Below are positions 14,527 to 16,671 of a DNA stretch of 64,000 nt, in pieces; position 1 is the first letter of the stretch, and each line of letters begins with the position of its first letter. The translations under genes were made by a program, and so were the position numbers. This stretch comes from Minisyncoccota bacterium. GTDB lineage: Bacteria > Patescibacteriota > Minisyncoccia > Phycocordibacterales > UBA9973. The notes under the pieces are model-generated. The model ran no database searches. It worked only from the letters and a program-made list of their open reading frames with translations, and was not told where the DNA came from. The stretch lies in assembly GCA_041666045.1 (NCBI GenBank), contig JBAYHR010000003.1:2208-66207 (forward strand). Reading direction: 5' to 3'.

Positions 14527-16671
14527 ATGGATAAAAAAGAAGCAGAAAAGAGGATAAAAAAATTGCGTGCTGAAATTGCTCGCTTAAGAGAGGCATATCA
14601 CATTGAAAATGCGCCAAATGTTACAGATAGTGTATATGAATCTTTATCTCGTGAACTTAAAACACTTCTTGAAAAATATCCAGAATATAATGATATTAAT
14701 TCTGCTGAGAATAGAGTTGCTGGAAAACCATTAGATAAATTTGTGAAAGTAGAGCATAAATCAAGAATGCTTTCTTTGAATGATGTTTTTTCTGAAGAAG
14801 AATTATATGATTGGGAGCAGAGAAATTTGAAATTACTTGGCTATGGTAAATTTAACCCCGTTAGAAATCGCGAGGGCTCGCAGCGACCCTCTATTTCTAA
14901 CGGGGTGAATTATTTTTGTGAAGTAAAATTTGATGGACTTGCTGTGTCTTTAATTTATGAAAATGGAAAGTTTGTAAAAGGAGCTACTAGGGGAGACGGA
15001 TTTATTGGTGAAGATATTACAGAAAATTTAAAAACAATACAATCAATTCCACTTTCTCTTTCTGGAAATTTTCCAGAATATATAGAAGTTAGAGGGGAGG
15101 CGATAATGTCTAAAAAAACATTAATTGTATTAAATAAAAAAAATGAAAAAGAGGGGAATCAGCTTTTTGCAAATACTAGAAATGCAGCAGCTGGAAGTTT
15201 ACGACAATTAGATCCAAAATTATCTGCAGAAAGAAAATTAGATTTTTTTGCTTATGATATAGCTGAAGTGGGGTGGGCTTCGTCACCTGCAAAATTTTCT
15301 TCACTGCGCCCTTCCCTGAGTACAGGGTGGGACCCTCGCGAAGAAAATTTCACAGATGACTTCGCTTTAAAAACTCATTCTGAGAAACATGCTCTTCTTA
15401 AAAAGCTTGGTTTTAATGTGGACAATAATGATGCAATTTCTAATAATTTAGAAGGCGTGATTTCTTTTATAAGAAAATTTGAAAAGATTCGTCCTGATTT
15501 TCCTTATGGAACAGATGGTGTCGTTATTTCTGTTGATGATTTGAAATTGCAAGAAACTTTAGGGGTAATAGGAAAAGCTCCACGATATATGTCTGCTTTT
15601 AAATATCCAGCAGAACGTGCTACGACAATAGTGAAGGATATTAAAGTGAATGTAGGACGTACTGGCGTGCTTACTCCGCTTGCTATATTTGAGCCGACGC
15701 TTGTGGCTGGATCTACAGTATCAAAAGCAACTCTTCACAATATGGATCAAATAGAACGTCTTGATTTGAAAATAGGAGATACTGTTGTTATTGAAAAAGC
15801 TGGGGATGTTATTCCGAAGGTTGTTGAAGTTCTTACAAATATGCGAACAGGCAAAGAAAAGAAATTTAAAATGGTTAGTAAATGTCCTGTGTGTGAAAGT
15901 AATATTGAGAAAAAAGAAATTTCTGAAAAAAAAGAAAAGTCTGTCGCATATTATTGTTCTAATCCTAAATGTCCTGCAAAAAATGAAAGATATTTAGAAC
16001 ACTTTGTTTCTGTGTTTGAAATTTATGAGCTTGGTCCAAAAATCTTACGAAGATTTAAAGATGAAGGTTTAATAACAGATGCATCAGATGTTTTTACTCT
16101 TACGAAAGAAGACATTGCTCCGCTTGAAAGATTTGGAGAAAAAAGCGCGGAGAATATTGTGAAAGAAATAGAATTAAAAAAAAGGATTCCACTTTCTCGT
16201 TTTCTTTGGGCTCTTGGGATATTGCATGTCGGAGAGGAGACTGCGAGAGATTTAGCCACAACTTTTGGAACTTTAGAAAAATTAATCAATGGAAATGCTG
16301 AAGAAATAAATGAAATAGAAAATATCGGCCCTGCTGTTTCAAAAAGTCTTTATGAATTTTTTCATGATAAAAATAATTTAAACTTCATAGAAAAATTGCA
16401 GAAAAATGGAGTAATTATTGAAAAAGTAGAAAAGAAAAAAGCTGGAAAGTTTACAGGGTTAACTTTTGTTTTGACTGGAACGCTTTCTAGTATGTCTCGT
16501 GAATTGGCAAAAGAAAAAATAATAAATTTAGGCGGAAAAGTTTCTGGTTCTGTTTCAAAAAATACTTCTTATGTTGTGGCAGGAGAAGAAGCTGGATCAA
16601 AATTAACTGATGCTCAAAAGTTAGGAGTAAAAATAATAGACGAAAAAGAATTTTTAAGTCTTATTAAATAA
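14527..16671 (+). CDS. ligA: NAD-dependent DNA ligase LigA
   Basis: KxDG adenylation motif ([12 protein letters not shown]), OB fold, Zn finger CPVCES...C...C, HhH and C-terminal BRCT (FVLTGTL...[10 protein letters not shown]). Carries two in-frame palindromic insertions. Confidence 0.9.
14857..14905 (+). repeat. in-frame palindromic element in ligA (IR arms CCCCGTTAGAAAT/ATTTCTAACGGGG, GC-rich core)
   Basis: 13-bp perfect inverted repeat flanking CGCGAGGGCTCGCAGCGACCCTCT. Translated as [18 protein letters not shown]. Confidence 0.8.
15291..15351 (+). repeat. second in-frame palindromic element in ligA (arms AAAATTTTCTTC/GAAGAAAATTTC, GC-rich core)
   Basis: Core ACTGCGCCCTTCCCTGAGTACAGGGTGGGACCCTCGCG. 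It contains CCCTCGCG, the reverse complement of CGCGAGGG in element 1. Confidence 0.75.

Follow-up and report, generated by a model that had tools for sequence, protein, structure and literature searches.

The question raised by this locus is how a GC-rich hairpin comes to lie in frame in the middle of a protein-coding gene of an AT-rich bacterium. The gene is ligA, which encodes the NAD-dependent DNA ligase LigA, in a 64-kb window of a Minisyncoccota contig (the window being the whole stretch of 64,000 nucleotides (nt) that was analysed, with a GC content of 30.95%). The earlier note on this DNA had described the hairpin as a palindromic element inserted together with its own AT-rich inverted repeats. 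The inserted block, about 15271-15339, belongs to a dispersed family of short GC-rich hairpins, here termed the A family, whose copies lie inside protein-coding genes of Paceibacteria/Nomurabacteria. The long stem of the hairpin is not carried by the element: one arm is host flank and the other is its reverse-complement copy. The window matches best to LigA proteins and to contigs that bear the labels Nomurabacteria, Paceibacterota or Minisyncoccia (Patescibacteria, also known as CPR, the candidate phyla radiation).

In all four of its sequence statements, the earlier note had read the hairpin correctly. The arms AAAATTTTCTTC (15291-15302) and GAAGAAAATTTC (15340-15351) are complementary at 11 of 12 positions, with AAATTTTCTTC as a perfect 11-mer pair within them; an inner hairpin is formed by CCCTG (15314-15318), AGTA and CAGGG (15323-15327); the core terminates in CCCTCGCG; and the segment is translated in frame as a 25-residue peptide within the LigA open reading frame (ORF). 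The structure exceeds that description, with arms of 21 nt at 86% (15282-15302 and 15340-15360), which on direct reading reach 26 nt with 20 of 26 positions complementary. Folded as single-stranded DNA, 15277-15365 yields -20.2 kcal/mol against -9.1 +/- 2.1 for shuffled sequences (z = -5.24), and none of 200 shuffles folds as well. Local GC content is 0.50-0.53 at the hairpin and about 0.7 in the core, against a window average of 0.31.

The host ORF resembles solved LigA structures over its full length (PDB matches, E = 2e-150) and contains the series of adenylation, OB, Zn-finger, HhH and BRCT domains (Pfam), which together place it among the NAD-dependent DNA ligases. Its residues 248-282 stand opposite just 9 residues in the LigA of E. 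coli (2owo). In an alignment of the query with 120 close homologues (69-89% identity, 663-784 aa long), the hairpin segment coincides with a low-occupancy block; E. coli LigA and many close relatives lack it, and the in-frame insertion proposed before is borne out. Some insert is present at exactly this site in 54 of the 121 sequences, with many unrelated cores, loops without an insert measure about 11 residues, and ENF/NFL/NSL-type residues are found in homologues free of insert. Across 80 genome loci every LigA loop above baseline length corresponds to a strong DNA hairpin; by share, ligA hairpins are about 3-fold enriched (63 of 162 hairpins in 12% of bases, p = 1e-18) and are concentrated at four or five positions. 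In an AlphaFold2 model of LigA (mean predicted local distance difference test, pLDDT, 73), values below 50 within the adenylation domain are confined to residues 66-71, 108-124 and 251-278. The latter two are the two ligA inserts of the window, each between confidently predicted strands or helices, and the model predicts the A insert as a low-confidence coil in a surface loop, directly after the FFAYD strand of the adenylation domain.

The A family is defined by a 25-nt core motif, CCCTTCCCnGnnTACnGGGyGGGAC. A metagenome collection scanned with CCCTTCCCNGNNTACNGGGYGGGAC returned 118 stretches, and 96 distinct copies of the motif were found in them, so that the search for copies elsewhere proposed in the earlier note gave a positive answer. 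Only four of the 96 copies lie in ligA; with a minimum frame length of 80 codons 87 copies fall within open frames, and with a minimum of 150 codons 77 do. The host ORFs of the first 80 loci form 18 clusters, and the ten host representatives annotated with Pfam are unrelated: FAD-linked oxidase, RluA-type pseudouridine synthase, LeuRS, UvrC, SAM methyltransferase, NusB, UvrD helicase, RF1, UvrA and Pol I. Orthologues aside, the copy most similar to that of the window sits in a UvrD-type helicase gene (L089, 81%). Within ligA, the A core occupies the same site in L001, L049 and L082, and a second site (a Zn-finger loop, empty in the window) in L024, L030, L049, L055 and L074, once reversed; L049 holds two A copies. 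Copies occur in both orientations relative to host genes and use four of the six frames, with unrelated peptide products such as LTLPGVPGGTH and SHPVLREG and yet another in the frame used in the window; the conserved thing is therefore the DNA and not the peptide. Pfam gave no match for the insert peptide. Clean junctions yield insert lengths divisible by three. Other cores are dispersed likewise, among them a D core (CTCCACCCTTCGGGCGGAACCTTCCGCG), a B core (CTCGGGTCCTCGG...CCAGACCAGCTCG) and an E core (CGCCTTCGCCCTCGGAGACAAAGGACAGGGGACCCACG).

Turnover at the site was followed in four ligA genes that are 82.5-88% identical (window, L081, L082, L084). The A core is found in the window and L082, and a B core at the same AAAATTTTC position in L081 and L084, which are as close to the window as L082 is; element 1, the other in-frame ligA insertion of the window, is common to the window and L081 only. 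The two patterns do not fit any one tree; replacement, recombination or precise loss has occurred on this timescale. The comparison for presence and absence among relatives thus turned out positive. The element does belong to a repeated and evidently mobile family that tolerates in-frame positions. The suggestion of recent activity does not hold for the window copy, which is old, since L082 (its ligA 86% identical in nt) has it too and the two copies differ by substitutions. A loop specific to this LigA lineage that grew in place without mobility, or a peptide module selected for LigA function, would agree with the vertical inheritance of the same insert in the window and L082 and with a site that is a surface loop of varying length in many LigA proteins. 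It is nevertheless scarcely credible as an explanation, for the same 25-nt motif recurs in at least 17 other host-ORF clusters and in four frames with unrelated peptides, L081 and L084 hold a different core at the same position, and AlphaFold2 gives the insert no structure. For the core it is refuted; what survives of it is that the right arm is native LigA sequence.

Some further arrangements are found at the LigA hot spots. Coreless perfect coding palindromes of 14-23 bp with 4-nt loops occur there, and a 24-nt pure inverted duplication of neighbouring sequence separates L035 from L037 at ligA nt ~319; these are evidence that palindrome-making here needs no foreign core. Judged at the protein level only, P0052 appears to carry an inverted A core, with unchanged residues on either side. 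L014 (10679-10816; P0100, P0104) bears a double insert at LigA site 2, consisting of a reversed D core followed by a second partial unit in a 46-aa loop, and looks like a nested or merged element.

The origin of the arms was read from comparisons of filled and empty sites. Among LigA genes without an insert here, that of L204 is the closest (75% nt identity); its sequence is given as GCAGAGAT/CAACGAAAATTTTC... (a slash marking the junction) or as GCAGAGAT/CAACGAAAATTTTCTGGCGAC.... Against it, 15340-15365 (GAAGAAAATTTCACAGATGAC...) is native and the insert, with boundaries uncertain by a few nt, covers about 15271-15339; it is made up of six unassigned bases, the host flank in inverted copy and the core. 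The best model for the window has a native right arm (k = 18, selection-corrected p ~0.05). The AT-rich inverted repeats had been taken as part of the transposed unit, and this part of the earlier picture fails, as the right arm is native in L204 and the left arm is an inverted copy. L026 reads ...GCGGAGCAAAA, then the insert (GAAGAATTC-core-GAATTCCTC-TTTTGCTCCGCT), then ATCTGT, and the empty L047 and L027 read ...GCCGGAGCAAAA/ATCCGT. The L072 insert terminates in CTTTGGAAATTTCCGA, the reverse complement of native TCGGAAATTTCCAAAG, which is also present in the empty L017, and in L074 (A family) the right arm TCGCGAATTTGCGCAG matches the native sequence of the empty L041. Explicit junctions are further available for L013/L015, L046/L010 and L010/L030; for L013, L046 and the window, native sequence extends to the AT-rich inner arm as well.

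The palindrome exceeds the indel in length in most of 55 filled/empty comparisons. Native arms were tested against a null in which orientation and arm length are re-optimised after shuffling of both arms, which corrects the bias of selecting the best model; 11 of 13 filled/empty pairs gave p < 0.05, five of them at the floor of 0.0099. One half of the stem is accordingly a reverse-complement copy of pre-existing neighbouring sequence, as in template switching. The flank duplication is inverted, 10-28 nt long, and no direct target-site duplication was seen at clean filled/empty junctions. Insertion of a core into a pre-existing host palindrome is ruled out for L026 and L072, whose empty sites are without the second arm; it may occur sometimes. 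At ligA hot spot 4, where L071 has arms and a B core, the empty site of L051, aligned to L071 1386-1469, contains the short palindrome CGGAAGTTTGGAAACTTCCG, which may be either a footprint after core loss or a pre-existing palindromic target.

These junctions bear on the picture of the earlier note, that of a classical non-autonomous transposon resembling a miniature inverted-repeat transposable element (MITE) and moved, with target duplication, by a transposase encoded elsewhere. A dispersed multi-copy family with a conserved core and semi-conserved inner arms, present or absent among close relatives, is what such an element would look like; the neighbouring element 1, with constant terminal repeats, behaves in this way, and both inner arms are missing from the empty site for L026. 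The outer arms of A copies, however, are copy-specific, one of them being host sequence, and the terminal inverted repeats that MITEs share are lacking, alignment columns 11-24 and 88-101 showing all four pair types. The duplication is inverted instead of direct, the inner arm is native in three filled genes, contigs with two copies simply have two host sites, and no transposase was seen beside copies in the 118 loci, in which no systematic protein screen was made. Neither the A motif nor ligA element 1 found a match in a viral collection, which leaves the transposon without a viral carrier there. A MITE-like origin is considered unlikely on balance, although it keeps appreciable weight.

The history of the stem was examined in an alignment of 72 distinct A copies. 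Only some 37-63 central nt are conserved across them; the inner arms are semi-conserved (AAAATTYTTC type), and the outer 14 or more bp differ in every copy yet stay paired. By RNAalifold, 23 of the 31 pairs show compensatory double changes. Paired cells amount to 90.5%, as against 64.4% in shuffles and at most 53.5% with the 3' partner slid, and the covariation score of 0.606 (0.147 in shuffles) was reached by none of 500 shuffles. Both sides are altered in 603 cells, compared with 199 in shuffles, and one-sided changes of the G-U type number 0-4 per pair; multiple simultaneous compensatory changes with few one-sided intermediates are again as in template switching. The inner-stem pair at alignment columns 51/58, which had been left free in the search, is Watson-Crick in 71 of the 72 copies, with four pair types. 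Window and orthologue L082 differ by such a double change (CCCTG/CAGGG versus CCCCG/CGGGG), and orthologous copies that have diverged keep their stems paired.

Covariation of this strength, kept in diverged orthologues, and a core conserved over many genomes could also point to a functional nucleic-acid structure under selection, either an mRNA hairpin tuning ligA or a DNA cruciform serving as a binding or replication signal. This is judged improbable. The copies stand in both orientations relative to the host gene, they are patchy among close relatives, different cores swap at the same site, and G-U pairs are rare, unlike in RNA helices. Stem mismatches are mostly A.C on the strand carrying CCCTTCCC..., regardless of host gene direction (A.C on the sense strand, 50 versus 19); the bias tracks element orientation and arises largely from two consensus positions. 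Selection on mRNA structure would be expected to leave G.U wobbles on the sense strand, and as the asymmetry follows the element and not the coding strand, there is no sign of it. Rfam reported nothing at gathering threshold over the window, and a permissive Rfam scan of 14700-15500 gave chance-level matches only, none of them on the element.

The A element is best read as selfish DNA that is translated into a disordered loop and for which nothing points to a function in the host. Rather probably, it is a translated 'coding palindrome' whose core and flank-derived stem are spread and maintained by template switching. In such an event, the nascent strand would leave its target beside a short AT-rich palindrome (of the AAATTT, GAATTC or GAAATTTC type), copy the stable GC-rich core from another copy, snap back on itself, copy its own just-made flank into an inverted duplication and then return to the template. 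Later mismatches would be corrected by the same hairpin-primed switching, so that the two arms evolve in concert. Survivors would be those with a length divisible by three, without stop codons and in tolerant surface loops, and the element would therefore be seen in frame in essential genes. Hairpin-loop-primed intrastrand template switching is known to create, extend and correct stems (PMC8794818), and coding palindromes of Nematomorpha mitochondria have likewise been attributed, as a proposal, to template switching (PMC6649704). Copy-choice spread is favoured here because template switching yields exactly the end products encountered: a foreign stable hairpin tip, a stem from host flank, block-wise pairing changes, coreless palindromes and pure inverted duplications.

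Several points weigh against this reading. No insertion event was observed directly and the mechanism is inferred from its end products, and copying a core from a distant donor requires an inter-molecular switch, which is rarer than switching within a hairpin. A transposase acting in trans may yet be involved, 64 kb being the part of this genome that was covered. The native-arm test for the window copy is borderline because the closest empty site is only 75% identical. Both AT-rich inner arms seem to arrive with the insert in L026, unlike in L013, L046 and the window, so that target preference and microhomology are not separated. The side of the native arm is inconsistent relative to core orientation, with no fixed polarity found, and a simple directional model is thus not demonstrated. 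As a sign of recent transposition, homogenisation within genomes gave a mixed result, the two copies per genome being alike in L049 yet not in L156.

A wider claim is put forward only tentatively, namely that GC-rich cores are transposase-free mobile DNA that hijacks replication template switching, with a stem built from host flank and kept perfect. If true, it would imply an inverted duplication of the target site, persistence in essential genes across Paceibacteria and the addition of disordered loops to core proteins. The flank-derived stems offer a testable handle on the movement of short hairpin repeats without an obvious enzyme, and template switching, if it is the mechanism, would link quasi-palindrome correction to true copy-and-paste mobility. 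In E. coli, quasi-palindrome switching is raised in strains deficient in exonuclease I/VII (exoI, exoVII).

The closest functional analogues of the A family are the Rickettsia palindromic elements (RPEs), reportedly described by Ogata et al. in 2000 and 2002, and the GC clusters of yeast mitochondria. RPEs form families of about 100-150 bp with their own sequence throughout (PMC10969869) and have been reported to lose repeat identity over time (PMC6649704). Like them, A copies are dispersed palindromic repeats in frame in unrelated housekeeping genes (87 of 96 copies in open frames; ten hosts) of a small, AT-rich, host-dependent bacterium, and they are translated, tolerated in surface loops and associated with no known transposase. 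They differ in that the conserved unit spans only about 37-63 nt, short of both the RPE size and its whole-length conservation, with an outer stem that is copy-specific and host-derived, and in that the stems are actively kept perfect; going by the RPE descriptions, the hosts here (Nomurabacteria/Paceibacterota) also belong to another phylum.

GC clusters (for example GC42; PMC4478555) are likewise short GC-rich hairpins proliferating in a very AT-rich genome, with a constrained stem, a free loop, rapid turnover, unit mergers and an unknown mobilising enzyme (PMC4478555). The A family shares the dispersal of GC-rich hairpin repeats in an AT-rich genome, with 96 copies. The short direct repeats AG/ACT at the ends of GC clusters (PMC4478555) are absent from A-type filled/empty junctions, the flank duplication here being inverted and 10-28 nt long, and about 90% of A copies lie within ORFs. 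The sponge RHE are reported as related mitochondrial hairpin elements (PMC2800124).

Template-switch quasi-palindromes and 'coding palindromes' (PMC8794818; PMC6649704) have in common with the A family a reverse-complement arm, simultaneous compensatory changes and perfect coding stems, and coreless perfect palindromes stand at the same ligA hot spots (L035, L043, L045, L015). The known cases are local and have no shared dispersed core, in contrast to the conserved foreign core at each hairpin tip here; a foreign core in about a hundred places means that something also copies the core between loci. Repetitive extragenic palindromic (REP) sequences and REPINs, mobilised by RAYT (PMC3733652), are also short palindromic hairpin repeats, and the long hairpins here have a REPIN-like look. 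REPs lie outside genes, and one end of the palindrome is tagged by the tetranucleotide GTAG or CGTC (PMC3733652), whereas A copies are intragenic, and neither GTAG nor CGTC is present at either conserved end of the 72-copy consensus.

Full-text searches of the available literature turned up no account of elements like these in Patescibacteria, CPR or Parcubacteria. Selfish palindromes that persist within coding genes are known from very few cases, namely the RPEs of Rickettsia, certain mitochondrial elements and the mitochondria of nematomorphs. The abundance of these elements in Patescibacteria would account for some of the differences in length, and some of the loops that defy alignment, among core proteins, of which LigA, with 663-784 aa at 70-89% identity, is an example. 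Annotation, phylogenetic alignment and structure prediction in this group can all be misled by the inserts. The features of the window and of other loci are collected in Table 1.

Table 1. Positions of the hairpin, its parts, its host gene and other repeats; positions are those of the window unless a locus is named.
Feature	Position	Strand	Basis
Host gene, NAD-dependent DNA ligase LigA, 714 aa	14527..16671	+	ORF, PDB matches, Pfam domains
Probable inserted block, 69 nt (23 codons)	15271..15339	+	Gap versus L204, low-occupancy block, AlphaFold2 pLDDT
Left arm GCTTCGTCACCTGCAAAATTTTCTTC, inverted copy of right host flank, within insert	15277..15302	+	Absent from L204 empty site
GC-rich core, 37 nt, conserved mobile unit, inner stem-loop	15303..15339	+	Motif recurrence
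Family motif CCCTTCCCTGAGTACAGGGTGGGAC	15309-15333	+	Part of core
Right arm GAAGAAAATTTCACAGATGACTTCGC, native LigA coding (EENFTDDFA), pairs with left arm	15340..15365	+	CAACGAAAATTTTCTGGCGACTCC at L204 empty site
ligA element 1, 54-nt in-frame insertion	14854..14907	+	Core 14869-14892
B-family core CTCGGGTCCTCAGTTTGGAGCCAGACCAGCTCGG, long arms (20+ nt), in frame in trmD (43003-43743), ILVASKVSSGPQFGARPARKLSSHQNK	43237..43314	+	Hairpin survey
Coreless palindromes, ligA site 2	L035 10712-10774; L043 10754-10810; L045 7496-7552; L015 5071-5127		
CCACCCC repeat	L013 19050-19122; L029 4922-5007 and 19955-20027; L040 5970-6051; L071 18868-18936; L078 19410-19479; L080 9560-9639		

Element 1 had been assigned to the same family as the A copy on the strength of CGCGAGGG, which in the window occurs just twice, at 14869 (+) and 15333 (-), against 0.13 expected. 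As evidence this link is weak and was rejected: CGCGAGGG, which the A core carries as its reverse complement CCCTCGCG, occurs in just 8 of the 72 A copies, 4% of shuffles of two GC-rich cores as large as these have some 8-mer in common, and the termini of element 1 are found in none of the 72. Element 1 is a different kind of element. Its terminal inverted repeats CCCCGTTAGAAAT (14856-14868 and 14893-14905) enclose the core, and its fold has z = -5.5. It is identical in L081 and cleanly absent (54 nt) from L082, L084 and L204, the empty site reading AAATTT/AATTAT. The terminal repeats CCCGTTAGAAAT are constant at every copy, with other interiors at 16719-16783, at 52951-53067 and in L017, so that element 1 does share terminal inverted repeats as MITEs do. 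A copy identical at 48 of 48 positions lies in frame in L045 (8951-9002), near the N-terminus of the gene downstream of ligA (MKNKLN...IKIL), a homologue of the window ORF 16784-17311; it looks recent or horizontally spread because LigA of L045 is only 68% identical to that of the window. Termini of the form TCCCGTTAGAAAT ... ATTTCTAACGGGA frame AT-rich intergenic stretches of 40-93 nt (16719-16783, 52951-53067 and L017 3033-3111), each of which stops exactly at the ATG of the downstream gene (...CTAACGGGATGAAA). Such termini may supply or overlap start sites.

A hairpin survey of the 64 kb left four structures that pass the filter, two in ligA, one in trmD and one resembling a terminator. The trmD core groups with 14 B-family copies that other genomes carry in ligA and in further genes, and TrmD (Pfam) has about 21 extra residues compared with PDB TrmD structures. 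The fourth, at 57452-57494, is a near-perfect 20-bp hairpin, AAAAATCCTCCGACGT TAC GTCGGAGGATTTTT, flanked on either side by runs of A and T, and looks like a bidirectional intrinsic terminator. A 150-nt stretch of up to 67% GC (18210-18363) forms the C-terminal 50 residues of an AT-rich 318-aa ORF (17410-18366), just upstream of tRNA-Ser(GGA) at 18548-18635 (-). Outside ligA, another conserved structured repeat, CCTCTTGAGGAGTACCC...GGAGGTGG...CCACCCC...CCACCCCTCAAGAGG, is present in several genomes. Finally, two element-bearing contigs show unusual domain combinations in Pfam, a NUDIX domain inside LeuRS (residues 367-492; L095 1392-4298) and a NUDIX domain fused to NusB (L119 4058-5125).

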